64,000 bases of DNA from an uncultured virus (IMG/VR IMGVR_UViG_3300035696_000033). Taxonomy: Duplodnaviria > Heunggongvirae > Uroviricota > Caudoviricetes. The stretch lies in IMG/VR virus record IMGVR_UViG_3300035696_000033. One strand, given 5' to 3'. The translations under genes were made by a program, and so were the position numbers. The notes below the pieces were generated by a model. That model made no database searches. It was not told where the DNA came from and worked only from the letters and a program-made list of their open reading frames with translations. Below, piece after piece: positions 13,215 through 25,673 of this stretch (positions are counted from its first letter, which is position 1; every line of letters begins with the position of its first letter).

Positions 13215-14921
13215 ATGAAAACAAAACTCGCAATCATCCTCATCGCGGCGTTCTCGGTATTAACCGGCCACGCTCAATTTCAACTGGTGGACACGACAAC
13301 GGCCCACGTCGTCGGAGGGCAGATCATCTATGGCGATCCGCTGCCAACGGCATTTGCAAAGGTGAACAGCAACTTCACTTACTGCGCCGCGCAACTCGCG
13401 TTTTTGAACACGGAATGCGCGAACATTGTCGGGCTTCAGGCAGGGCTTCAGGCAACGAACGCGGTGTTCTCAAACAACTTCGTCAGCGTCATCAACATGG
13501 TGACAAACTTGAATGGGAAATGGATTCAAGGCGGCACAATAAACAGCAACTCGCTGGACAGCGGGACGATGGCATGGCTGAACAGCCACAGCATCTCCGG
13601 CAGCGGTGGCGGCGGCGATGGTTCTGGCGAGATGGATTTTGACGGCGGGGCGATCATCAGCGATGGCAATGGAGACATTTGGGCAAATGCGATTGTTGTT
13701 CCATCCATATGGGACAGCCAAAACCTGACAGGCAGCGCCGGCCAGGTGGCCACGGCGAATGGCGACAGAACGTGGAGTTGGGAAGCGCCAAGCGGCGGGG
13801 GTGCCGCGACCATCGTCTTCACCAACACAATCACCGGGGCGCCCGGCACGATGGCCATCGTCACAAATGTTGGAAACAATGTGTCGGCAGTTCTTCAACT
13901 CACCATCCCCGCCGGCGCGCCCGGTGCGCCCGGCACAAACACTGTCACGGTCTATAACTTGAGCAACGCGTGGCTTGGTTGCCGGCTGTTACCGACCTAC
14001 ACGACCAACTATGCGATGTGGAACGCTTCGAATTTTCTCGCCCGCGTGCCGGGATTTTATAGAGGACGGGCTTCCGGCGGCGACGATGGCGGAAATCCGC
14101 CGGAGTCCATTCCGATTTCATTTGTTGGGAGCTTCACGGGCACCAACAACTGGTTCGTGATCACCAATGGCTTCCAGACGACGAACACCATTTCTGTTGC
14201 GCTCATCACCAACGGGGCTTCCATGAGAGGGGGGACCATTGTTGATCCCGGCAGCGCCACACTTTACAACGTTGACCATTGGGAACTGGTTGGTGTCACC
14301 AACTACGGGTTCGCCGAGCATTACCAGTTCGACACGCCTGTAAATCCAAATGATGCGGCGACGAAGGGTTATTGTGACGGCCTGTATGCCAACGCCTTCG
14401 ACTCCAACTTTTCCAGCTACACCAACAATGGCGTCACCTACACCGTTTATTCCTACCAAAACGCAGTGACGTTTCAGATCGCCAACCAGACGGTGAACAT
14501 TCCGCACAGCTTTGCGATTGACGGGACGGGCACGAACATCCTGTTTGGCCTCACGCTGGCCAGCATGACGAATGGCTGCACGCTGCAATACTCGACGAAT
14601 CTTGCGCAGGTCGCCGGCTGGATGACGTTCACCAACTACACCTCTACCACGAACGCGGGCGTCGTGACGTTCACAATCCCCATGAACCGGTCCCTGCCAT
14701 TGATGCTGTTTCGCGCCATCGCCAGCGCCACCAGCATCCCATCGTTTCTTGTTCCGCTTGGCGTGCCGGAGATCGCCTTTGCGACGAACACGATCACGCA
14801 TTCAACCAATTCGACCTATGGCTACGGCGCCGGCCTGATGACGTGCGACACGAATTATGTTTACGTCAGCGTGGGGACGAACGCCTGGTGTCGGCTGGCG
14901 ATCCCGACGAACACCTGGTGA
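13215..14921 (+). CDS. Fibre-like protein with Sec signal peptide
   Basis: MKTKLAIILIAAFSVLTGHA-Q leader; PVNPNDAATKGYCD and C-terminal DTNYVYVSVGTNAWCR fibre motifs; many N-x-T/S sequons. Confidence 0.65.
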   Translation: MKTKLAIILIAAFSVLTGHAQFQLVDTTTAHVVGGQIIYGDPLPTAFAKVNSNFTYCAAQLAFLNTECANIVGLQAGLQATNAVFSNNFVSVINMVTNLNGKWIQGGTINSNSLDSGTMAWLNSHSISGSGGGGDGSGEMDFDGGAIISDGNGDIWANAIVVPSIWDSQNLTGSAGQVATANGDRTWSWEAPSGGGAATIVFTNTITGAPGTMAIVTNVGNNVSAVLQLTIPAGAPGAPGTNTVTVYNLSNAWLGCRLLPTYTTNYAMWNASNFLARVPGFYRGRASGGDDGGNPPESIPISFVGSFTGTNNWFVITNGFQTTNTISVALITNGASMRGGTIVDPGSATLYNVDHWELVGVTNYGFAEHYQFDTPVNPNDAATKGYCDGLYANAFDSNFSSYTNNGVTYTVYSYQNAVTFQIANQTVNIPHSFAIDGTGTNILFGLTLASMTNGCTLQYSTNLAQVAGWMTFTNYTSTTNAGVVTFTIPMNRSLPLMLFRAIASATSIPSFLVPLGVPEIAFATNTITHSTNSTYGYGAGLMTCDTNYVYVSVGTNAWCRLAIPTNTW

Positions 14922-14989
14922 CTAGAATTTCCTAGAAATTGTGCTTGCATTTTACGGGGGATGCGCCAGAATGATTCACATATCCAAGG
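14922..14989 (+). promoter_or_regulatory. Sigma70-like promoter, class B copy 1
   Basis: TTTCCTAGAA, TTGCAT-N16-CAGAAT, then CATATCCAAGG; the same elements recur at 24790-24861. Confidence 0.5.
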
Positions 14990-15020
14990 AGCGTGGCAGC
15001 ACTGTAACCATTTGCCGCCC

Positions 15021-16319
15021 ATGTCAGACTCCAAACCGATGCGTGTCCTTGCGCTTTGTGATTCCCCCGCCGTCCGTCCCGGCACCGCCCCCACCGGGTT
15101 CGCCCGCGTCGCCCGCAACCTGTTCGCCCAATGGCCGGAGGACGTTGAGATAGACATCTGGGCGCTCCACTTCGACGGTTGGGGCTACCGCGACCTCCTT
15201 GCGGAGGGCCACCAGTGGACATTGTTCCCCGGCGGCAACCGGGACTGGAACACGCCCGCCCGGCTCAACGCCCTTTTGAAGGTATTGTCCTCCGGCCGCT
15301 ACACCCACGTCTGGATGCTGGCGGACGCGGACGCGCTGTGCGTTGGCAACGGCGAGCGGAGTTTTCCGAACCAATTGCGGGCCTGCTGCAAAAAGCACGG
15401 CATCAAATCGCTGCTTTATTTCCCGATTGACTGCGATCATCAGGAGTTTGCGTGGATGGAAATGATCAAGGCGGTGGACGCGGCCGTGACGTTCACGGAA
15501 TACGGCGCGAGCGTGGTGAGAGAAACGCTGTCGCAAAGCCTGTTCCCGATCCACGTGCTGCCGCACGGGCTGGACGCGCACTTTGTCCCGGTGGAAAATG
15601 AGGGGCAGAAGGCGGAATGCAGAAAACAAATCATCCTTGAAAGTGGAAGGCCGTTCGCCGGAGAAAAAGACTTCCTGCTGCTGAATGTGAACAAGAACGA
15701 GTGGCGCAAGGACCCGCTGCGCTCCCTTGAAATTTTGAAGGGTCTGGTGGAGCGCGGGCTGCCGGCCAAGATGGTTTTCAGGATGTCCGCGACGAGCGTC
15801 ACGGACGGAATAAACATTCCGCGGGCGGCGGCGCAGCTCGGCCTGGAGGATGGCGTGCACTACGTCCTGCTCGACGCCGTGCCGGAACAACACCTGCCCA
15901 AGCTTTACCAGGCGTGCGACCTGTATATCACCACCACGCTGGGCGAAGGCTGGGGGCTTGGCATCACGGAGGCGCTCGGATGCGGGGTGCCGGTGGCGAT
16001 GCCAATGCACACGAGCTGTGGTGAAATTGGCGAAAACATTTTGACAGAGACAGAGAAGGCCGCGGGGGGGCCGCGCACCTTCAGTCCACTTGCATGGGTT
16101 GCTCCAATCGTTTGGCTGGAGAAAGAAGGGGGACAAGTCTGTGGCAATGACACGCGGCTGCGCTGTCGCGTGGACCTGTTGAAGGCGATCCGGGATGTGG
16201 AGAAGTTCTGGCGCGCCGCATCCGGAGCCCCGTGCGCGCCGGTTCGCCTGCCGCCGGAAATCCGCGAGTGGCTTTCGTGGGAGCGCATCGCCAAGGAATT
16301 TTTGAAACTGATGAAATAA
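15021..16319 (+). CDS. GT-B (GT4-like) glycosyltransferase
   Basis: DSP..TGFARV N-terminus, LPHGLD, NKNEWRK, YQACDLYITTTLGEGWGLGITEALGCGVP. Confidence 0.9.
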   Translation: MSDSKPMRVLALCDSPAVRPGTAPTGFARVARNLFAQWPEDVEIDIWALHFDGWGYRDLLAEGHQWTLFPGGNRDWNTPARLNALLKVLSSGRYTHVWMLADADALCVGNGERSFPNQLRACCKKHGIKSLLYFPIDCDHQEFAWMEMIKAVDAAVTFTEYGASVVRETLSQSLFPIHVLPHGLDAHFVPVENEGQKAECRKQIILESGRPFAGEKDFLLLNVNKNEWRKDPLRSLEILKGLVERGLPAKMVFRMSATSVTDGINIPRAAAQLGLEDGVHYVLLDAVPEQHLPKLYQACDLYITTTLGEGWGLGITEALGCGVPVAMPMHTSCGEIGENILTETEKAAGGPRTFSPLAWVAPIVWLEKEGGQVCGNDTRLRCRVDLLKAIRDVEKFWRAASGAPCAPVRLPPEIREWLSWERIAKEFLKLMK

Positions 16320-16337
16320 CATGAACCCGATAATAAC

Positions 16338-17132
16338 ATGAACCCAATTCCCGTCCTCGGCATCCCGCACTACAACCGGCCCGACCTGCTGCTGCGCTGC
16401 ATCCGGAGCATTGATCACCCCGTCCGCAACCTGGTTATCGTGGCAAATGGCCTGCCGTCCGAAACGCCGCCGGATTTTATCGTGCGATCATCCGCTTACG
16501 ATGGCGTGGAAAACGTGAGGGTCATTAATCACCCGAACTCCGGCGTTGCGGGCTCGTGGAATGAAATCATCAAACTGTTCCCCGCGCCGTGGTGGATGAT
16601 CGCCAACAACGACATTGAGTTCGCGCCGGGGGATCTGGGGAAAATGGCGACAGCCGCCGAGCATAATCTGGAACGGCGGTGTTTGCGTTTTACCCTCGTT
16701 TCAAACCCGGACAGTGAGGTCGAGCCTGCGGGCGCGATCTACGGCAACCACGGAGCGAGCTGGTTCGCCATCACCGCGCACGGCGTGGAGAAGGTGGGAC
16801 TGTTCGATGAAAACATCTACCCCGCCTACCTGGAAGACTGCGACTGGAGTTATCGCGCCGACCTGATGGGTGTCCGGCGCCTTACGCTGGTGGGGGATGT
16901 TCGCGCGAAACACGGCGATGACAAGTGCCTTGGATCTTCAACCATCATGTCGGATCCGGCACTGCGGGAGAAGAACCGGCGCACGCACGGCGGGAACTTT
17001 TATTACTACCGGAGCAAGTGGGGCGGCGTCAACGGGCAGGAAGTCTTCAGGACGCCTTTCGACGATCCCGGATGGCCGGTGTGGGCGTGGAAATTCGATC
17101 CGGCGTTCCGGGCAAAACAGCAATGGTGCTAA
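16338..17132 (+). CDS. GT-A (GT2-like) glycosyltransferase
   Basis: IPHYNRPDLL, N.GVAGSWN, NNDIEF, VGLFDENIYPAYLEDCD. Confidence 0.9.
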   Translation: MNPIPVLGIPHYNRPDLLLRCIRSIDHPVRNLVIVANGLPSETPPDFIVRSSAYDGVENVRVINHPNSGVAGSWNEIIKLFPAPWWMIANNDIEFAPGDLGKMATAAEHNLERRCLRFTLVSNPDSEVEPAGAIYGNHGASWFAITAHGVEKVGLFDENIYPAYLEDCDWSYRADLMGVRRLTLVGDVRAKHGDDKCLGSSTIMSDPALREKNRRTHGGNFYYYRSKWGGVNGQEVFRTPFDDPGWPVWAWKFDPAFRAKQQWC

Positions 17133-17136
17133 AACC

Positions 17137-17928
17137 ATGATCCCGCGCATCAAAATAGTCTGCTTCTTTTACAACGAGGAAACGCTGGCCGAATTTTTTA
17201 TCCGGCATTACCGCTGGGCCGACCGGATTCACGCCGTTTTAAGCCGGTCAACCGACGGGACGCGGGCGGTTTTATCCCGCGCCCCGAATGTCGTCATCGA
17301 GGACTTTGAGTTTCCCGGCGGCCGCATGGACGATTTTTTGAAGAGGGACAAGGTGAACAGCCTCCTGCTGGAGCCGTCGGAGTTTGACTGGATCATCATT
17401 GTGGACGCCGACGAATTCATCTGGCCGTCCGTGCGCGCCGATGAATTGAGCGCGCGCGCCGCCGGCCTGACGGTCCGGGAACACCTGGCGTCCGTGCCGG
17501 CGAACGACACGGTGCTGCGCGCCCGGATGTGGAATGTTTTCCGGCACGCGACGGAAGGGGATCTGGACCCGAACAATGAGCCGGTGGTTTTGCAGCGCCG
17601 CCACGGCGACGTCGACCTAAACTCGACCGGCAATGCGCAGTATCAAAAGCCGATTGTGCTGCGCACAAACCTTGGGTTTCAGCTTGTGCCCGGCAACCAC
17701 GGGTTGCTGCCGAACCCCAACACGCGGCTATCGTTCCGCACGTTCGACGGCGCTCACTGGCAGAATGCGGATCCCTCGTTTTGCATCACGCGGCGCTGCC
17801 GCGACCGGCGCGACCGGCAAAGCGCGGCGAACCTGAAATTCGGCCTTGGCAGCCAGCACCATCATGTCACCGAGGCGGAGGCGCTGGAGTTGTGCCGCGC
17901 GCATTTGAACGACCCGCAATGTTTTTAG
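17137..17928 (+). CDS. GT2-like glycosyltransferase
   Basis: FYNEETL..FIRHY, STDGT, WIIIVDADEF. Confidence 0.85.
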   Translation: MIPRIKIVCFFYNEETLAEFFIRHYRWADRIHAVLSRSTDGTRAVLSRAPNVVIEDFEFPGGRMDDFLKRDKVNSLLLEPSEFDWIIIVDADEFIWPSVRADELSARAAGLTVREHLASVPANDTVLRARMWNVFRHATEGDLDPNNEPVVLQRRHGDVDLNSTGNAQYQKPIVLRTNLGFQLVPGNHGLLPNPNTRLSFRTFDGAHWQNADPSFCITRRCRDRRDRQSAANLKFGLGSQHHHVTEAEALELCRAHLNDPQCF

Positions 17929-18191
17929 GACAAAAAGCTCCCAGACGCCACGGTGACGCCTGCTGAGCGCAACCAAAAGCCACCCGCGAACTGCGACTAT
18001 GAATAACCCAAACCTTCTCGGATTACTGACAGCGCCAACGCGGGTTGGCTCCGGCGACTGCATATGGGAATGAACCTGCAACCTCGAAACGACGAAGAAG
18101 GTGAAACACTTCGTTGCACGTTTCGGCGCTGATGACATCGCCATCATTTACGCCCTTGAACTGCGGGACGAAACCACAACTCGTAAAATTT

Positions 18192-18656
18192 ATGGAACAA
18201 AAAATAACTCAAGATGGAGCGCGGGGCGAACCGCAGGTTCGCTCCGGCGCGGTGTTGGGCTGCTGCGTGGAAATCCAAAAACTGCTCGGAAAAGAAAAAG
18301 ACTTCCACGAGCAAACACGCGGCAGTAGCGGGCGTGGTGTGAAATGGGAAGAAGGCTTCATCGAAGGAATAAAGCACTGCCTGCTAGTGGTCTCAATGCA
18401 AAATAACAATCTAAAAACGCAGCAACCGCCCGCGTCAGCGGCGGGTGCAGCGGCTTATTTGGCGCTGACCGACGCGGAGAAAATCCAAAAGACAATCGAA
18501 CTTTTGGAATATCTGCATGCCGAATGCCTCGTGCCCGACATGGCGCATGATGCCGTCGGAACGTGCCGCATCTGCCGACTCCTAAAAGAACTGAAAGCAC
18601 CCGAACGCTTTGAGCAGCCCAACGCTCGTGCTGACCTGCGCGGCGACAAACCGTGA
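18192..18656 (+). CDS. Cassette-borne hypothetical protein
   Basis: Payload bounded by GTTGGGCTGCT (18254) and AGCAGCCCAAC (18623). Confidence 0.6.
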   Translation: MEQKITQDGARGEPQVRSGAVLGCCVEIQKLLGKEKDFHEQTRGSSGRGVKWEEGFIEGIKHCLLVVSMQNNNLKTQQPPASAAGAAAYLALTDAEKIQKTIELLEYLHAECLVPDMAHDAVGTCRICRLLKELKAPERFEQPNARADLRGDKP

Positions 18657-18926
18657 ACTCACTATTGCATCAAGACCAAACTGCCGGGCGTATCCCGTCA
18701 GGCTTCCGAAGGTTGCGATTCAGCCGGCGCACGGCGCGGTCGGCGCGAGAAGAAAGCTTTCGAGGCTGGCTGGATAGCTGGTGCCGAACGCATGGGGGAC
18801 TGCCTCAACGGCGGATACCGTCCTCAAACCGTGAAACAATCTGGAGCCTCAACGAAATAAACTGCGCGTCCAACCCGCATTGGCTCCATGCGGTAGTTGG
18901 GCGGCACAATCGAAAGACAAACAACA

Positions 18927-19334
18927 ATGAAAGAAAATGGTGAACCAAACTACGCGGGCTGGATCGTCGCATCAATCGTGGCAATCGGCGTCGTAATCTT
19001 CGGCGCAATGTGGGCGTATCCGCAATACAACATCTATGCGAGCCGCGCACTCGGCCAAGCAATGCTGGCACACGCGCAGTCCGCAAAAGAAGTGGCTGTG
19101 GCCGAAGCGAAGGCCAAAATGGAATCGGCGGAACTGCTGGCGCAAGCGGAAGTAATCCGCGCTGGTGGCGTCGCAAAGGCAAATCAGATAATCGGCGAAT
19201 CGCTGAAAAATAATGAGGCATATCTTCGCTACCTCTGGATTAACGACGTGGCCGCGCAAGGCACAGACAAAACCGTGGTGTATGTGCCAACCGAAGCCAA
19301 CCTGCCAATCCTTGAAGCCACCCGAAACAAATAA
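18927..19334 (+). CDS. Cassette-borne membrane protein (SPFH/Band-7-like coiled coil)
   Basis: One TM helix then an AEA-rich helix ending NEAYLRYLWI..VYVPTEANLPILEA; bounded by a 13-bp IR (18896/19374). Confidence 0.7.
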   Translation: MKENGEPNYAGWIVASIVAIGVVIFGAMWAYPQYNIYASRALGQAMLAHAQSAKEVAVAEAKAKMESAELLAQAEVIRAGGVAKANQIIGESLKNNEAYLRYLWINDVAAQGTDKTVVYVPTEANLPILEATRNK

Positions 19335-19388
19335 AACTCACGCGGCACAGTGCGCGTGCGCTGTGCCGCCCAACGAAAGCAAAAACCT

Positions 19389-20006
19389 ATGAAATTATCA
19401 GGACATCAACTAGACGGATTCAATGCAGCATTACGCGCAGGTGACGACGCGGGAGCACACCAAGAATTACAAATCGCGTGCGCCAAAGCTGATGGCGCAG
19501 CTCCGGTTCGCGTGCAGCCGGTTGTTCTGCCGCATCGTTGCCCGCACGGAAATCTCCCATACGGGAACTGGGCGAACACCGTCCCACCAATGACACGCTG
19601 GCAAATATCGTGTCCATGCTGCATGTGGTATGAGCAGGCTGAAAACGAAACGTGCGCAGTGAAGATGTGGAATGAATACCTGCGGCAGAACGCGGGAGCC
19701 AAGCTGCGTGCTCCCAGCGACACTGATAAAACTGAAGGCGTAATCACGTCGCCTCCAGCAACTTGTTCGGCGAAAACGTATCCTCACAATCCAAGCCACC
19801 CAATCGGAACATGCACTAAATGCGGCGGTGAGATGGTCTATAACGTGCCACGCATGGGGCCAAATGGCGGCTTCGTCCACAAAGCAACAGGACGCCTAGT
19901 GTGTGGAACTGGCCGATGCGATGCGTGTGGTGGAGACCGCGACAATGCAGACTGCCCTGAATTGGCAGAAATCATGCGCCGCTATTCGCCGAACGCTACC
20001 CGATGA
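19389..20006 (+). CDS. Chimeric ORF reading through attC; two Cys-rich Zn-ribbon modules (first is Lar-like)
   Basis: CPHG..ISCPCC..AVKMWN and CTKCGG..CDACGG modules on separate cassettes joined in frame. Confidence 0.55.
   Translation: MKLSGHQLDGFNAALRAGDDAGAHQELQIACAKADGAAPVRVQPVVLPHRCPHGNLPYGNWANTVPPMTRWQISCPCCMWYEQAENETCAVKMWNEYLRQNAGAKLRAPSDTDKTEGVITSPPATCSAKTYPHNPSHPIGTCTKCGGEMVYNVPRMGPNGGFVHKATGRLVCGTGRCDACGGDRDNADCPELAEIMRRYSPNATR
19685..19771 (-). repeat. attC site
   Basis: GCAGAAC...GCCTCCAGCAACTT-GTTCGGC. Confidence 0.7.
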
Positions 20007-20087
20007 GCCACGCCGCACCAATAACCGTGAACCGCGAAGCGGAACTGAACGCGACAATAGGCGTTGGCTCCGGCGGGTTTGTTAGGT
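19988..20087 (-). repeat. attC site
   Basis: GCCGAAC..TGAGCCACGCC...GGCGTTGGCTCCGGCGGGTTT-GTTAGGT. Confidence 0.85.
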
Positions 20088-20392
20088 GTCCGTCCACGAC
20101 ACTCGCACTTCCCGGTCTGGAATCAGAAAGCGTCCGGCTCGACGACATCATCCTGACGCCGCTCGACGTGGCGCGTGACGTGGTGAAACACTTCGCGCCG
20201 TCTGGCCGCATCCTCGACCCGTGCCGTGGAAATGGTGCGTTCGCCGATCTGATGCCAGGATGTGAATGGTGCGAAATCCGGCAAGGCCGCGACTTCTACG
20301 CATGGCGCGAGCCGGTGGACTGGATCGTTAGCAACCTGCCGAAGGAAGTCCGCGAATACCGAATACGGCGAAAGGAACGAAATGAAAAGTGA
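20003..20392 (+). pseudogene. Truncated DNA adenine methyltransferase-like cassette
   Basis: LTPLDVA, ILDPCRGNGAF (SAM-binding), GRDFY, VDWIVSN then LP instead of NPP(Y/F/W), followed by an early end; own attC end missing. Confidence 0.65.
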
Positions 20393-20696
20393 TGTTGAAC
20401 GTTCTGGGACACCGGCTGTTGCGGTGCAGCGCTTTGTTAGCCGCCCGCACCCGTGGAAATCCCAATTTTCCAACCAGCAAAAACTCAAAGAAGCCAGGCG
20501 GTGCGCAAATCTGCGCCGGATGAAAAAGTATCGAGATGACGGCAAAGAATACTTCCGGCTCACCGAAAAGACATGGCACGAAACGCACCCAAACGGCGCT
20601 GGAACAAACAACCCACGATTTACAGAGCGCGCCATAAAAGCAAATGCTGCCAAGCGTCAGGCGACTAACGATGGCGCTGAGGCGCGTGACCTATGA
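20382..20696 (+). CDS. Cassette-borne basic hypothetical protein
   Basis: AAAGGA before ATG; payload bounded by GTTAGCCGC (20436) and GCGACTAAC (20669). Confidence 0.55.
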   Translation: MKSDVERSGTPAVAVQRFVSRPHPWKSQFSNQQKLKEARRCANLRRMKKYRDDGKEYFRLTEKTWHETHPNGAGTNNPRFTERAIKANAAKRQATNDGAEARDL

Positions 20697-20944
20697 CAAC
20701 CGCAAACGAAAACTCTCCCGGCAAACCTGAAGGCGTAATCACGTCAGCTTCGGCGCGGGTGTCCGTGCGCCTAAAGGCATCCGACTGGGAAACCCTTGTC
20801 AACTTCGTGCAGGGTGACATAAGCAACATGGACATCGCCGACCCAAACCGCACCGACACCGAGAAAATCCTAAACGTAATCCGGCTCGCTCTGGCTAAAG
20901 CGCCGAACGAAAAAGCTGAGCGGCCCGCGACCAAGACGCCATGA
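20693..20944 (+). CDS. Cassette-borne hypothetical protein
   Basis: ATGA-coupled at both ends inside attC sites. Confidence 0.55.
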   Translation: MTTANENSPGKPEGVITSASARVSVRLKASDWETLVNFVQGDISNMDIADPNRTDTEKILNVIRLALAKAPNEKAERPATKTP

Positions 20945-20992
20945 ATAACACTGAAAACGCCAACGCGGGTTCGCTCCGGCGACTTGTTGTGC
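20902..20992 (-). repeat. attC site
   Basis: GCCGAAC GAAAAAGCTGAGCGGCCCGCG...CGCGGGTTCGCTCCGGCGACTT GTTGTGC. Confidence 0.85.
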
Positions 20993-21195
20993 CGCTGGTC
21001 GAAATTCTCGAAAAAGACATCGCCCGGCTGAAAACGCATCTCAAAATGTGGGAGGCCACAGGTAACCCGATGGTCATGCCAAGCGACGGCCAGTGTCGAA
21101 TACTCATAGACGATTTAGAAATAGTCGTCGCCGCGCTGAAGCGGCACAACGCGGGAGCTGACGCACCCGCGACCAACGATAAACGAACTCTATGA
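20941..21195 (+). CDS. Cassette-borne hypothetical protein
   Basis: Starts inside attC 20902-20992 and stops inside attC 21144-21252. Confidence 0.6.
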   Translation: MNNTENANAGSLRRLVVPLVEILEKDIARLKTHLKMWEATGNPMVMPSDGQCRILIDDLEIVVAALKRHNAGADAPATNDKRTL

Positions 21196-21252
21196 AACCC
21201 TCTCGAACAACTGACAGCGCCAACGCGGGTTGCGTCCGGCGACTTGTTAGGC
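21144..21252 (-). repeat. attC site
   Basis: GCACAAC..GCTGACGCACCCGCG...CGCGGGTTGCGTCCGGCGACTT GTTAGGC. Confidence 0.85.
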
Positions 21253-21311
21253 CACTGGTCGAAATAACAAAAAGTCTGGTCCGGCAAAAAACGTAATGAA
21301 ATCAACATAAA

Positions 21312-21530
21312 ATGAGCAAACAACCATCAAAACAGGCCAAATCCGGTCCGGGTATCAAAACCCGCAAACAAAAGCAAAAACGCGACGAACTAACATCGGC
21401 ATGTATCGGACTGCTAGTTGGCAACTTCCATTGCGATGCCTGCCACCTCAAGCGACGAATCTTCGATGAACTGTTCAAGCGAAAAATAATGGACGTAAAT
21501 CAGCACGGCCAAATGGTCGAAGTGGCCTAA
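21312..21530 (+). CDS. Cassette-borne hypothetical protein
   Basis: Stop codon is the TAA of GCCTAAC; CDAC motif. Confidence 0.55.
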   Translation: MSKQPSKQAKSGPGIKTRKQKQKRDELTSACIGLLVGNFHCDACHLKRRIFDELFKRKIMDVNQHGQMVEVA

Positions 21531-21711
21531 CGCCCGCATGAGCGAACCCCCAACCCGCGATGCCCAATAACCAACAACTCTACGCGCAAACCTGCGGTGG
21601 CAATGGGGGTTCGCTCCATGACGGCACGCCAGTCATGGGCGCGTGCAAGAAGCATCAAGACGAACTCGCAACAAAACTCAAATGGCAAATACAGCCACAA
21701 ACGCCGATTTG

Positions 21712-21819
21712 GCACAACGACCGGAGCTGAGACGCCCCGGAACTACGATATGAAAAAACCAAAATCCAAAGCAAAAACTGCAAGGCGTAATCCGGGTCGT
21801 CTCCAGCGACTTGTTAGGC
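21712..21819 (-). repeat. attC site
   Basis: GCACAAC..GCTGAGACGCCCCGGA...TCCGGGTCGTCTCCAGCGACTT GTTAGGC. Confidence 0.85.
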
Positions 21820-22094
21820 GACCCGTGCGTGAATACACCGTTGAAATGTGGCGCACGATGGGAGTGATGCGCCATAAATGTGAGGCGGCATCGCGGGACG
21901 AAGCCATCGAAATAATGCTGACTCATCTGCCGCCTGACTACCGAATAGTGCTCGTGACTACCGCAGCACAAGCCAAACGGAAACGCGGCCACACATATAG
22001 TGGGCGGTGCGTGGTCTGCAAAAAACACATCTATGATGAAACCGGATGCGAACATCCAAAGCCTCACCACTATGCCTGCGGTGAAGTCGCCTAA
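21750..22094 (+). CDS. Cassette-borne Cys/His-rich hypothetical protein
   Basis: ATG inside attC; CVVCKKH..C motif; stop in GCCTAAC. Confidence 0.55.
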   Translation: MKKPKSKAKTARRNPGRLQRLVRRPVREYTVEMWRTMGVMRHKCEAASRDEAIEIMLTHLPPDYRIVLVTTAAQAKRKRGHTYSGRCVVCKKHIYDETGCEHPKPHHYACGEVA

Positions 22095-22187
22095 CGTATG
22101 AAGCTGAGCCACCGCCGACTCTGGACGCTGACCGCGATAGCGGAACTGACCGCGCTAACGGCGGTTGGCTCCGGCGACTTGTTAGGC
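22089..22187 (-). repeat. attC site
   Basis: GCCTAAC..GCTGAGCCACCGCCG...CGGCGGTTGGCTCCGGCGACTT GTTAGGC. Confidence 0.9.
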
Positions 22188-22214
22188 AGCAACTCGTGAA
22201 CTGACATAAAAAAT

Positions 22215-22460
22215 ATGATAACTGAACAAACAACCTATCAGCCCGAAATCTGGTCTGTCAAAAAGGACGACATCTACGCCGCAATCACGGCGATAGAATC
22301 CGGCATCTGCTACGCGCAAGAATGTCTCGCCACTCACGACCAATCTCTCGGACGAACCACCCGCAAAAACAAAAGCTCTGCGGAGCGCATGGAATCTGAC
22401 CTGCGGCAAATGTCGCTCGCTCATGCCGCGCTACGCTTGCTGCCTAACGAAAAAAGCTGA
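22215..22460 (+). CDS. Cassette-borne hypothetical protein
   Basis: Ends LLPNEKS*, stop is the TGA of the attC GCTGAG box. Confidence 0.6.
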   Translation: MITEQTTYQPEIWSVKKDDIYAAITAIESGICYAQECLATHDQSLGRTTRKNKSSAERMESDLRQMSLAHAALRLLPNEKS

Positions 22461-22552
22461 GCCACCGGCAACCCGTGGCAAACGAACTTATGAAAACCCC
22501 TGCGAATAAAAAGAAAACTGCAATGCCGGTTGGCTCCGGCGCTTGGTTAGGC
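22442..22552 (-). repeat. attC site
   Basis: GCCTAAC GAAAAAAGCTGAGCCACCGGCA...TGCCGGTTGGCTCCGGCGCTTG GTTAGGC. Confidence 0.9.
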
Positions 22553-22771
22553 TGCGTCGAACCAAGACTGACTCCAATCTTCACAGAACTCCGCAAGCTC
22601 CACCACGAATGCGAGGCGGCAAATGAAGGCCGAATCGCTTGGGAAATCTCGCAAGGCATCCGCGCCTTGGATGAAGCTGTATATCTCGCCAAGCTGTATA
22701 TCAGCGGCAAGCCACTACCAACGCTGGCGTCAATGCGGGGCATACTCAAGCGGCCTAACGAAAAAAGCTGA
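22490..22771 (+). CDS. Cassette-borne hypothetical protein
   Basis: ATG within attC; ends KRPNEKS* in the next attC. Confidence 0.55.
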   Translation: MKTPANKKKTAMPVGSGAWLGCVEPRLTPIFTELRKLHHECEAANEGRIAWEISQGIRALDEAVYLAKLYISGKPLPTLASMRGILKRPNEKS

Positions 22772-22851
22772 GCCACCGCCGACCTGCGACGTGAACCGCG
22801 ATAGCGGAACTGCAAGCGCCAACGGCGGTTGGCTCCGGCGACTTGTTAGGC
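22753..22851 (-). repeat. attC site
   Basis: GCCTAAC GAAAAAAGCTGAGCCACCGCCG...CGGCGGTTGGCTCCGGCGACTT GTTAGGC; close to the 22089-22187 copy. Confidence 0.9.
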
Positions 22852-22879
22852 GTCTGAAACGGAAAACTGAAATAAAAAT

Positions 22880-23092
22880 ATGGCATATCAAAAGAAAGCT
22901 CCAATGAAGCGCGAAATCTTTTTCTCGCAACGAATGGACATGGCTCGCCGCGCCGAAGCGTGGTGCGTCGAACGTGGCGCAGCACTCTCATCTGGCAACA
23001 TCGTGACGGCTCTTGTCAGCATGGGAATCATCAAAAAATATACGGCGGCAAAGACGCCTAACATTGTAATAGGCAACCAATCCGCGAAATGA
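22880..23092 (+). CDS. Hypothetical protein of the attI-proximal cassette
   Basis: Payload bounded by GTTAGGCGTCT (22845) and AGACGCCTAAC (23062). Confidence 0.55.
   Translation: MAYQKKAPMKREIFFSQRMDMARRAEAWCVERGAALSSGNIVTALVSMGIIKKYTAAKTPNIVIGNQSAK
23056..23074 (-). other. attI-like recombination site
   Basis: - strand GCCTATT-ACAAT-GTTAGGC resembles the attI1 core CCCTAAA-ACAAA-GTTRRRY and terminates the array. Confidence 0.65.
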
Positions 23093-23403
23093 AAGACGCA
23101 AGCTATTGGCAGAGAAGGAAATCCGCAAGGCAGCGTTGGAGTTTCAATGCTTGTCGGAAGCGTGAACGGAACAGGGTTGAGCGTGCCAACGCACCATTGC
23201 CGGACGAACGAATCCACCACGCTTCCAAGCCGCGCCGATCTCGCCCTGATTTGAAGGTGATTCTTGAACGGAGGGACGGGATGCGGATTCAGTTCTCGTT
23301 GCATAATTTTTACGGAAAACTTGTCGGCCAAACCGTAAACATGAGTCCGAAACAGTTTGGCCGTCGGCTTGGAGAAATTTTCAACCTTTGGTGCATGGCA
23401 TGA
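23089..23403 (+). CDS. Basic hypothetical protein
   Basis: ATGA-coupled on both sides. Confidence 0.55.
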   Translation: MKDASYWQRRKSARQRWSFNACRKRERNRVERANAPLPDERIHHASKPRRSRPDLKVILERRDGMRIQFSLHNFYGKLVGQTVNMSPKQFGRRLGEIFNLWCMA

Positions 23404-24053
23404 AAATCAGCGCATTAATTCCAAGCCGAGGAAACCCGAAAGAATTGCGGGACACAATATCGAACCTGTTTTCCACGGCACGGAGCCCAGAATTGCTGGA
23501 GGTGGTTGTGCGGTTGGATGAAGACGACCCGACATTTCTGGACTACGAAAGATGCTTCCGTCCGGGTGTGCACTGGATCATGGGTCCGCGACTGGGATAT
23601 GCGCGGATTCACGAGTATTACGAGGAGTGTTACAAGCTGTCCATCGGCGACCTGATCCTGGCTTACAACGACGACGTGGAAATGATGACGACCGGATGGG
23701 ACGAGGCCTACCGCACGGCGCTGGCCCCGGTGAAGTTTGGAGTGGCATCGGCGGCGGTGGACGAGGGCAACGGCACGAATTACGCCTGGGCGATGCCGAT
23801 GGTCAAGCGCGAGTTGTGTGAGCGGATTGGCCGGTTCTGCGCGGGGGTGGAAACCTGCGACCGGATATTTGACGCCTACGCGCGGTTAAGCGGCCGCGGC
23901 GCAACGGCCCGAGTGAAGATGATCCACCGGTGGCATCCGCCGGCACCGGGCGGCGAGCGCGATAAAATCTACAACCACGCGACAAGCCACTGGGGGGAGA
24001 TGACGGCAAAGTGGGATGCGTCCGCGCGGGAAATGATGGAGATGACGAAGTGA
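23400..24053 (+). CDS. GT2-like glycosyltransferase
   Basis: MKISALIPSRG, VRLDEDD, GDLILAYNDD. Confidence 0.85.
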   Translation: MKISALIPSRGNPKELRDTISNLFSTARSPELLEVVVRLDEDDPTFLDYERCFRPGVHWIMGPRLGYARIHEYYEECYKLSIGDLILAYNDDVEMMTTGWDEAYRTALAPVKFGVASAAVDEGNGTNYAWAMPMVKRELCERIGRFCAGVETCDRIFDAYARLSGRGATARVKMIHRWHPPAPGGERDKIYNHATSHWGEMTAKWDASAREMMEMTK

Positions 24054-24268
24054 CGCTCAAGCTGACCTTTCTTGGCTCAACGACACTGGCGCGACGCTAC
24101 CGGCACTGTAACGGCATCATCCAATGGGTTCCGCGGTCAGTGTGCCCCAAAAACTTCAAGCACGGCGACAAGGCGGGCGACCTGCACGAGGTCACCATTG
24201 AGGACTGGTGGCTCAAGGCAAACCCGTTTGAAAAGCCGGCGTCCAAGGGACAGCAAAACCTGCTATGA
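24050..24268 (+). CDS. Small hypothetical protein
   Basis: GTGA overlap; WVPRS..VTIEDWWL pattern common in small phage proteins. Confidence 0.55.
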   Translation: MTLKLTFLGSTTLARRYRHCNGIIQWVPRSVCPKNFKHGDKAGDLHEVTIEDWWLKANPFEKPASKGQQNLL

Positions 24269-24504
24269 CCGCCACCTACAATGCCGAACGCCAGAAAATT
24301 TACAACCGGCGCGCGCGTGAAAAGAAGGCAATGATCAAACGCATCAGCCGCGAGCTTGACGCGGCGATTGAGGCGCTGGAAAGGCTGCCCAAATGTTGCG
24401 CCTGTCAGTCCCCTGGCGCGCAGTGCGACCACACGACGCAGCGGAAACTATACACCATTGAAGCGGCCATCGCCCGGTCGCAACTGGCGGAGGCGGAATA
24501 TTGA
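24265..24504 (+). CDS. Small hypothetical protein
   Basis: ATGA overlap; CCAC..C motif. Confidence 0.5.
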   Translation: MTATYNAERQKIYNRRAREKKAMIKRISRELDAAIEALERLPKCCACQSPGAQCDHTTQRKLYTIEAAIARSQLAEAEY

Positions 24505-24797
24505 CCGCGCCCCGGCAACGCTGGACAAGGATCGGATCATTGAAATCCGATGTCACGCTTCACGGGCGGGGCGCCGTCGGCCGCGGCTGGTGGCTGAACT
24601 GGAGGGGCCGGTGCGACTGGTGCCAGCCGAACGAATTTGAAAACATGGAGAGCGTGGAATGGGCGGTGCGCCGCCGTCTGGCCATCGCCGGGCTGGAGCT
24701 GCTTGCGCTGGCATCCAGGCCGCCCCGCAACGAATATCAGGGCCTTTGGGCGCTGGTGAAGAGATGTAAAAAATATGCGCCCCGGTCATTTTCCTAG
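24501..24797 (+). CDS. Small hypothetical protein
   Basis: TTGA overlap with the upstream ORF. Confidence 0.4.
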   Translation: MTAPRQRWTRIGSLKSDVTLHGRGAVGRGWWLNWRGRCDWCQPNEFENMESVEWAVRRRLAIAGLELLALASRPPRNEYQGLWALVKRCKKYAPRSFS

Positions 24798-24861
24798 AAG
24801 TATCTAAAAAAATAACTTGCACACGGTGACGCGATAGGTTAAGAATTGGGCATATCCAAGG
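24790..24861 (+). promoter_or_regulatory. Sigma70-like promoter, class B copy 2
   Basis: TTTCCTAGAA, TTGCAC-N18-AAGAAT, CATATCCAAGG. Confidence 0.5.
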
Positions 24862-24878
24862 CGGCGCGTGGGGTGTGC

Positions 24879-25673
24879 ATGTCCGAACTTTGCGTTCCAT
24901 TGGATTATGAACAGCTGCCAGAACTCTGGCGGTTGCGCAAGGCGCTTGCCGCCCGGTCTGCCGGCGCACCCAATTCCCAGCCTTCCCCCAAGTCCATCGA
25001 GGCGGCGGCAAACTTCCTGTTTGCGCGCCTCTTCGTGACGCTCGGATATCTCGCCAAGTCCACCAACCAGCCCGGGGTGCTGACCGAAACGGGGGGCCAG
25101 CAGCTGCGCGCCTCGCTGGAACCGCTGTTCGGGGACGATTGCGAACCGGTGGCGCTGCTGGCGGAGTGCGGGTTGTTGCAAAAATCGGAAATCGGGAAAT
25201 CGGAAGGCGGAAAAGAATACATCTGTCCCCTGTTCGCCAAGCTGAACCTGCACCTCTCTGGAGACTACAAGCCCGGCCACATCAAGGGGAACGTGAACTC
25301 CCGCCTGTCGGTGGCGATGAAGAACATCGTGGGCGAATCGGCGCAGCAGATGAGGCTGCTGCCGGAGGGGGTCTTCCAGAAGAATGACGGCACGCCCATG
25401 ACGGACATGGAGCGGCAGTCCGCCGTGGTGATCATCCGCACGCTCGACCGCTGCCTGATGAGGCCGTCGCGCGGCAAGTTTGAGTTCAGCGCGGGGCTGA
25501 TGGCGACGGCGCACGACATCGCGACAAGGCACGACCGGGAAAAGCTCAAGTCGTTTTATTTCTGGCTGGCCAACAACTGCGAGCGGCCGGAGATCGCCAG
25601 GGTCCCGGATGAAATCCTGCGAGACTTCGACCATTACTTCGCGCTGGCCCAAGCCGGGGCCCCCGCCCTTTAG
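24879..25673 (+). CDS. Hypothetical protein
   Basis: Long ORF with host-like codon usage downstream of a promoter-like site. Confidence 0.7.
   Translation: MSELCVPLDYEQLPELWRLRKALAARSAGAPNSQPSPKSIEAAANFLFARLFVTLGYLAKSTNQPGVLTETGGQQLRASLEPLFGDDCEPVALLAECGLLQKSEIGKSEGGKEYICPLFAKLNLHLSGDYKPGHIKGNVNSRLSVAMKNIVGESAQQMRLLPEGVFQKNDGTPMTDMERQSAVVIIRTLDRCLMRPSRGKFEFSAGLMATAHDIATRHDREKLKSFYFWLANNCERPEIARVPDEILRDFDHYFALAQAGAPAL

Follow-up and report, generated by a model that had tools for sequence, protein, structure and literature searches.

A candidate attI-type entry site at the head of a cassette array in an uncultured phage with presumed Verrucomicrobia hosts

Positions 23056–23074 of the uncultured virus record IMGVR_UViG_3300035696_000033 probably form an attI-type entry point, at which an integron integrase (IntI) supplied in trans would insert and remove cassettes at the head of an attC array. 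The site has the position and polarity of an attI, resembles the attI sites of Verrucomicrobia from soil and peat, the presumed hosts, is conserved next to unrelated first cassettes, and occurs in complete related phages in which no intI was found. The window, i.e., the whole stretch of DNA analysed here, comprises the first 64 kb (64,000 nucleotides) of a linear virus record of 72,599 bases, whose completeness was estimated at 57% and whose gene content includes tape-measure, holin, helicase, and primase-like genes.

The attC cassette array occupies 17960..23062 (- strand) and holds approximately 14 cassette bodies, some of which are truncated. Each body is bounded at both ends by its own 10–13-base inverted repeat, which is the mark of units that were once circular. 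The distal attC near 17960–18060 is degenerate and some cassettes are decayed; the R boxes of the three proximal attCs are intact, and two of these attCs fold clearly better than shuffles. The first cassette (22753..23062, - strand) consists of an attC at 22753–22851 and a 218-base body at 22845–23062. With two or more attC sites and no nearby intI, the array is a CALIN as defined in the cited sections of PMC4889954. The cassette at 18896–19374 contains an ORF (18897–19334) matching phrog_11227, which is labelled as a protease (E 2e-45), and at 20081–20340 lies a truncated DNA-methyltransferase-like cassette, an intact relative of which (514 bases, 90% identity) is present in the IntI-bearing phage G313. 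Glycosyltransferase-like genes are present on both sides of the array (14961–17928 and 23388–24053).

A 21-mer from a window attC is common to the chromosomal integrons of Verrucomicrobiae. Scanning genome contigs with this 21-base motif yielded at least 176 matching stretches, and among the 80 matches listed most were titled Verrucomicrobiae, with some Limisphaerales and a few other labels. The host is accordingly presumed to be a member of Verrucomicrobia, with the shared attC sequence as the sole basis. Records titled Bifidobacteriaceae (L100, L110, L112, L143, L157, L171, and L172) contained the same attC family, and L143 and L171 also contained IntI; the label or the binning of these records may be wrong. 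Of 301 genomes sampled within the order to which one attC-sharing genome belongs, hereafter the presumed host order, 103 contained an IntI above the cut-off. In all 15 host integrons examined, corresponding to the distinct integrase ORFs adjoining the attC-motif arrays, intI was located downstream of the array on the strand that is + in the window, and the TIGR02249 cut-off was passed by each of the nine host integrase ORFs tested. The longest ORF lay on the strand opposite to intI (- in the window) in 217 of the 271 host cassettes. This intI position and this ORF strand identify the - strand of the window as the attC top strand and place the site where an attI belongs, in agreement with the placement proposed in the initial annotation. 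The polarity of the attCs was additionally fixed by the base following AAC, which was G in 144/144 host attCs.

GCCTAAC occurs five times in the 72,599-base contig, always between 21525 and 23056. The other four copies open attC sites, and the copy at 23056 is the last. This last copy is a true cassette end, as shown by an 11-base pairing between GTTAGGCGTCT at the far end of the cassette (22845) and AGACGCCTAAC, whose last base is 23062. The initial annotation held that no attC follows this copy; the letters it gave were confirmed, and the folding of 23056–23155 relative to shuffles gave a z of -0.02, as against -3.6, -3.2, and -1.5 for three neighbouring attCs, so that there is no attC hairpin beyond this point. 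A search against Rfam produced no match.

The site reads GCCTAAC ATTGT AATAGGC on the + strand and GCCTATT ACAAT GTTAGGC on the - strand. Its R box, GTTAGGC (23056..23062, - strand), derives its G from the platform and TTAGGC from the first cassette, whose end is marked by the 11-base pairing; it agrees with the GTTRRRY R box of attI, the TTRRRY portion being that of the first cassette. By analogy with the cited sections of PMC12901181 and PMC4792948, the crossover is predicted between 23062 and 23061. The 5-bp spacer is ACAAT (ATTGT on +; 23063..23067, - strand), and an identical spacer follows AAC in three of 33 host junctions (L328, L373, and L429) and in the junction of phage G006. The L box GCCTATT (AATAGGC on +; 23068..23074, - strand) is an imperfect inverted repeat of the R box, and the host L-box block has the consensus ATTggGCg on the same strand. 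Overall, the site is a 5+9+5 inverted repeat, and its top strand reads G-T-T, i.e., a GWT is present at the crossover. A short tail ending in GCGAA (23075..23088, + strand) leads to the next start codon; it is kept in the closest relatives and contains no inverted L-box copy of the host type.

For comparison with host attI sites, 110 stretches lying upstream of host intI genes were parsed by script, which yielded 39 candidate junctions. Twenty-seven of these were kept by eye, 12 were dropped as still being attC halves or as having weak pairings, and six of 15 junctions from the first integron set were added (n = 33); the host and the phage junction sets were both hand-selected by eye. As a check on the host set, the integron pairs L129/L429 and L139/L426, each from within one genome, had the same junction and different first cassettes. 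A two-block core model was trained only on the 33 host junctions between the last cassette and intI. Under this host-only model, the window site scored 7.0 bits and ranked first of the 2380 AAC positions in the 72.6-kb contig, the leave-one-out median of the host junctions being 5.7 bits. With 124 host-derived seeds, the rank of the site varied between 1 and 7 (shuffle p 0.003); the site was also first among 105 RYYYAAC sites and first among 111 AT-rich sites starting with A. With the accessory repeat included in a three-block model, the site was placed only fifth of 2380. The base after AAC was A in 27/33 host attI junctions and in 17/17 phage junctions, as opposed to the G of host attCs.

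An inverted copy of the L box (at least seven of eight pairs), approximately 21–24 bases on, was detected in 10/33 host junctions, in 0/15 phage junctions, and in 2.5–3.2% of shuffles. This feature was noticed in the present study and does not come from a published definition. In loci such as L426, L344, L338, L385, and L391, the top strand carries the inverted copy 21–24 bases upstream of the L box, in contrast to attI1, whose repeats are direct. Judged by sequence, then, the phage site appears to be a bare attI core of the host type without accessory elements.

Viral contigs were scanned twice with attC motifs and once with an alignment of gene X, the gene behind the site, and the heads of the related phage arrays collected in this way were read by script and by eye. 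Seventeen junctions were found in 15 phage records, including that of the window, and AAC was followed by A in all of them. When 15 phage junctions were scored together against 10,639 AAC sites, 12 were among the best 5% and the others among the best 9% (weakest, 8.9%). Two more phage junctions scored 7.7 and 5.0 bits, and those of G006 and G316 scored just 0.3 bits. The closest variants of the sequence after AAC (+ sense) were ATTGT GATAGCC in G006, ATTGC AAYAGGC in three copies in G005, AATGT GATATGC in G316, ACTGT ATTATAC in G310, and AGTGT ATTAGGA in G309. Further cassette ends followed by A-rich non-attC sequence were seen near contig ends at L347:19807 (G007) and L300 (reverse) 7421; these two and a non-attC end near a contig end in L089 were left out of the scoring.

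These scores also bear on whether the site is a secondary target of the attG type that was once used by a host IntI, in which case its attI likeness would reflect the preference of IntI rather than descent or selection as a platform. According to the cited part of 10.1101/2022.09.11.507474, IntI inserts at GWT motifs genome-wide and attI may have arisen from such hotspots; the top strand of the site does read G-T-T, and the modest scores of the G006 and G316 junctions would fit such an origin. However, a random GWT target would not be expected to rank 1/2380 under a host attI model, and the same core type caps arrays in 15 phage records with differing backbones, three of which carry an IntI-like gene right behind it. 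We regard a secondary target as quite improbable.

The expectation that the site would be conserved in relatives with different first cassettes was borne out. Among 13 first cassettes compared, one pair was related, at 37%, and the rest were unrelated. In pond run X4, two contigs matched the window to the right of 23052 and of 23058, respectively, the former with 7 differences in 284 bases; to the left of the match, their letters were unrelated to the window, and one of them ended like another cassette type. These X4 contigs were of low depth (3.9 and 4.4) and came from a single run, and runs X2, X3, and X5–X8 yielded no contig spanning the site. A 758-base cassette, 92.5% identical end to end, was docked at the site in G005 and was followed by an attC in G318. 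In G005 (L352), three site copies of approximately 23 bases (at reverse-strand 2080, ~4416, and 9768) each stood behind a cassette end; one then led to a gene X homologue, and another preceded a 684-aa ORF that appears terminase-like from its sequence. The in-array copy of L352 was followed by approximately 240 AT-rich bases and half an attC. As a counter-example, the near-identical L090, L281, and L288 have one first cassette in common.

Direct scans for the site gave few further junctions. An exact 15-mer scan of viral contigs returned 81 stretches, none of them in an attC array, and a 17-mer variant scan returned 14 stretches, two of which were real junctions (L276 and L281). In a metagenome scan, five stretches corresponded to the same phage (L286, 99.99%), one contig of the G006 lineage (L288), and three stretches without cassettes. 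No match to the array DNA was found among INPHARED phages. The order difference between L090 and L288 was considered as proof of IntI activity and rejected; the switch takes place inside conserved attC ends rather than at the AAC crossover, a pattern more in keeping with homologous exchange or misassembly. The near-identical phages L354 (14270–15465) and L288 (reverse, 88–1740) differ in cassette order and in one 360-base cassette, with all switches located in conserved attC ends and away from the AAC crossover. In L354, the cassettes at 18277–18728 and 14270–14764, the first cassette among them, have their longer ORF on the top strand, as in hosts, and may be recent host captures.

The pattern of conservation may also be read as that of an attI relic. 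On this account, an ancestral complete integron lost its intI, the core was kept mainly as a coding tail and coupler, and cassettes change by homologous exchange at attC repeats. The missing accessory elements, the decay of distal attCs and of some cassettes, the L090/L288 difference, which resembles exchange within attC ends, and the single first cassette of the three close relatives would all fit, and the ATGA overlap described below provides a second reason for conservation. On the other hand, the X4 contig, with its 7 differences in 284 bases over gene X, differs to the left of the R box and shares only about 7–11 bases there, too few for homologous exchange; the proximal attCs have kept their R boxes and, in two cases, their fold; and the site has spread to three places in G005. 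A relic is unlikely in view of these results, and an attI-type entry point is still the reading that we prefer.

The first-cassette ORF (22880..23092, + strand; 70 aa) is antisense to the attC polarity and could be assigned to neither a Pfam nor a PHROG family. Its reading frame runs across the site, and its TGA stop and the ATG start of gene X (23089..23403, + strand) overlap as ATGA; gene X encodes a 104-aa basic protein in the position and orientation of intI in host integrons. Gene X has 19 homologues besides itself (22 clusters), and homologues were found behind the same junction in G005 (one copy), G006, G309, G310, and G316. The ORFs behind the junctions of G007, G311, G314, and G317 had a weak link to the gene X family (E 0.4 to 1.4 before manual addition of members) and are termed no more than X-like; the ORF of G008 showed no link to it. 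Gene X was not detected in the 301 genomes of the presumed host order searched or in INPHARED phages. When the 453-aa neighbour and gene X were each used as a single-protein query, no loci were returned; the gene X alignment returned four. The predicted fold (pLDDT 87) combines a long basic helix with three strands and a further helix. Neither Pfam nor PHROG contained a matching family, Foldseek gave nothing at E <= 0.001, all Atlas matches were under 0.8, and the highest VIA Z was 4.4. The possibility that gene X has an integrase arm-binding or excisionase fold was considered and found no support in the fold and family searches.

The AAC frame terminated in ATGA, overlapping the start of the next gene, in 6/15 phage versus 0/33 host junctions, and a stop occurred within five codons in 15/33 host junctions versus 1/13 phage junctions lacking an IntI-like gene, the junctions in both counts being partly non-independent. 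No Pc was conspicuous: in the region 17500–25000, two weak sigma-70-like matches were found versus 2.8 expected, and the cassette ORFs point in the opposite direction. In L354, the distal end of the array (14130–14270) has a promoter-like stretch, TTGACA...GATAAT, seen by eye with a spacer of 15, pointing to the site on the attC bottom strand.

An IntI and phage-integrase search of the contig of the window gave no match. This negative is weak, as the contig is 57% complete and a gene for IntI or for some other recombinase may be situated in the remainder; moreover, the tyrosine integrases known from G005 and G006 initially escaped the family search. Behind the site, the window contains gene X and a glycosyltransferase-like gene without an adjacent intI, and the locus is thus not a complete integron. 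Among the related records that were at least 90% complete (G007, G008, G309, G310, and G312), three of which have terminal repeats, a TIGR02249 match was found in 0/5, and a six-frame IntI HMM search of the five revealed no match of IntI length, only one 41-residue segment (E 0.01–0.05). The initial annotation proposed a phage carrying attI without intI; this holds for complete related phages, which have site and array and no detectable intI, and extends less far for the window's own contig, at only 57% completeness.

In contrast to these relatives, an IntI-like gene lies directly behind the junction in G313 (L301:10366–11377), G315 (L295:4601–5618), and G318 (L439:423–1412), on the same strand as the phage genes. 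Their TIGR02249 scores were 263.8, 223.7, and 229.9 bits, respectively, against a cut-off of 265, and the two phage IntI-like proteins that were aligned both keep the integron-type (I2-type) insertion with a 6-residue gap. Complete and integrase-less platforms therefore coexist in the phage group. In G318, the first 166-base cassette is present twice in tandem, 94.6% identical and with different attCs, possibly owing to a recent reinsertion or to an assembly effect.

Tyrosine integrases of the phage type raise another explanation, namely that the site is the core of an integrase target (attP or a resolution site) that abuts the array by chance. Such an integrase (phrog_1) follows gene X in G005 and G006 and the X-like ORF in G314, and the 5+9+5 inverted repeat would suit such a target. 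Nevertheless, one arm of the repeat comes from whichever cassette is first and varies between phages, no phage-type integrase was found in the contig of the window, G309, G310, or G312, and one G005 copy precedes the terminase-like ORF. This explanation is highly improbable.

As an attI-type entry point, the site would probably work as follows. IntI would act in trans, supplied by the presumed host or by a second, co-infecting phage that carries an IntI-like gene; it would bind the double-stranded core at its R and L boxes and cut in AAC, and the cut core would be joined to the folded bottom strand of an attC and resolved by replication, as in the established integron pathway (cited parts of PMC4792948, PMC2727003, and PMC12901181). 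A new cassette would land at 23061/23062. In the cited part of PMC8946536, non-cognate attI/IntI pairs are described as generally inefficient. The phage would read the array from its far end, on the attC bottom strand and without a Pc; because of this, the site may double as a coding tail, with ribosomes passing from the first-cassette ORF to gene X via the ATGA overlap. One may go further and speculate that Verrucomicrobia phages have evolved a portable integrase-free platform, in which the attI core and coupler is combined with gene X or an X-like protein that recruits or activates host IntI during infection, and which runs a pool of reversed cassettes, including DNA methylases, on the defence-stocking machinery of the host. 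We hold this scenario to be rather unlikely.

According to the cited sections of PMC4889954, attI is unknown for most integrons and CALINs are commonly seen as decayed or displaced arrays. In the integrase-less array described here, the entry site is still recognisable, and it is conserved in complete phage genomes. Since this entry site is conserved in integrase-less phage arrays, our results suggest that a phage may use the integron enzyme of its host to gain and reorder accessory genes, and the question of whether phage arrays recombine in trans becomes directly testable. The analysis also yielded candidate attI sites from Verrucomicrobia (n = 33) and, as putative cognate partners, three IntI-like enzymes of phages, and the reversed, operon-coupled cassettes bear on the origin of cassettes and on their expression without a Pc.

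Phage CALINs and one attI-capped prophage CALIN have already been published. The main text of Qi et al. 2023 (PMC9892861) reports phage CALINs and active phage attCs, and its supplement lists 17 CALINs; the one attI-capped CALIN shares a cryptic Shewanella prophage with a complete integron. The present array shares with these CALINs its attCs without intI and its methyltransferase cassettes and, with the one in Shewanella, an attI-type head. It differs in that the main text of that paper reports neither an attI for the CALINs of virulent phages nor a phage-specific pool of inverted cassettes nor a conserved gene where intI would lie. A literature search, whose coverage mostly excluded subscription papers, found no report of an integrase-less platform whose cassettes are inverted and translationally coupled and, for Verrucomicrobia phages, none of an integrase-less attI platform or of inverted cassettes.

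The site had been called attI1-like. The attI1 reference, read from two plasmid records (NZ_CP011661 and CP061688), is CCCTAAA ACAAA GTT with two GTT-type repeats upstream. Over the L box and spacer, 8/12 bases of the site are identical to attI1, which 3/2380 AAC positions of the contig reach, and the L boxes GCCTATT and CCCTAAA share 4/7 bases. Under the host model, however, attI1 scored -2.6 bits as opposed to 7.0 bits for the site, and comparison by eye revealed no GTTR motif at the offsets of DR1 and DR2 on the - strand. The reading as an attI-type entry site is thus retained, and that as a class 1 attI1 is not. As described in the cited parts of PMC12901181 and PMC4792948, attI1 has the same layout of L box, 5-bp spacer, and GTTRRRY R box; unlike attI1, the phage site lacks DR1/DR2, the AAC triplet at the L-box border, Pc, and intI1. 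For attI1, the cited part of PMC12901181 describes the simple site alone as weak against attC.

Delta-attI-type cassettes of mobile integrons, as covered in the same part of PMC12901181, are similar in that short attI fragments without DR1/DR2 can be IntI substrates, and G005 has one site copy within an array. In contrast to these cassettes, the short core of the phages is the main array head and lies outside a class 1 or 2 platform. The attG secondary sites, in the cited part of 10.1101/2022.09.11.507474, share the GWT at the crossover and are double-stranded targets outside an intI platform, whereas the phage site is conserved across phages, is similar to the attI cores of hosts, and heads long arrays. 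The host attI of Verrucomicrobiae, beside TIGR02249 genes, has the same attC family, array-head position, AAC followed by A, A/T-rich spacer, and L box of the ATTggGC type. The phage site differs from it in having no intI behind it and no inverted L-box copy, and in that its frame stays open and is coupled to the next gene; moreover, the longest ORF is on the bottom strand, facing the site, in 49/74 phage cassettes, versus 30/271 host cassettes.
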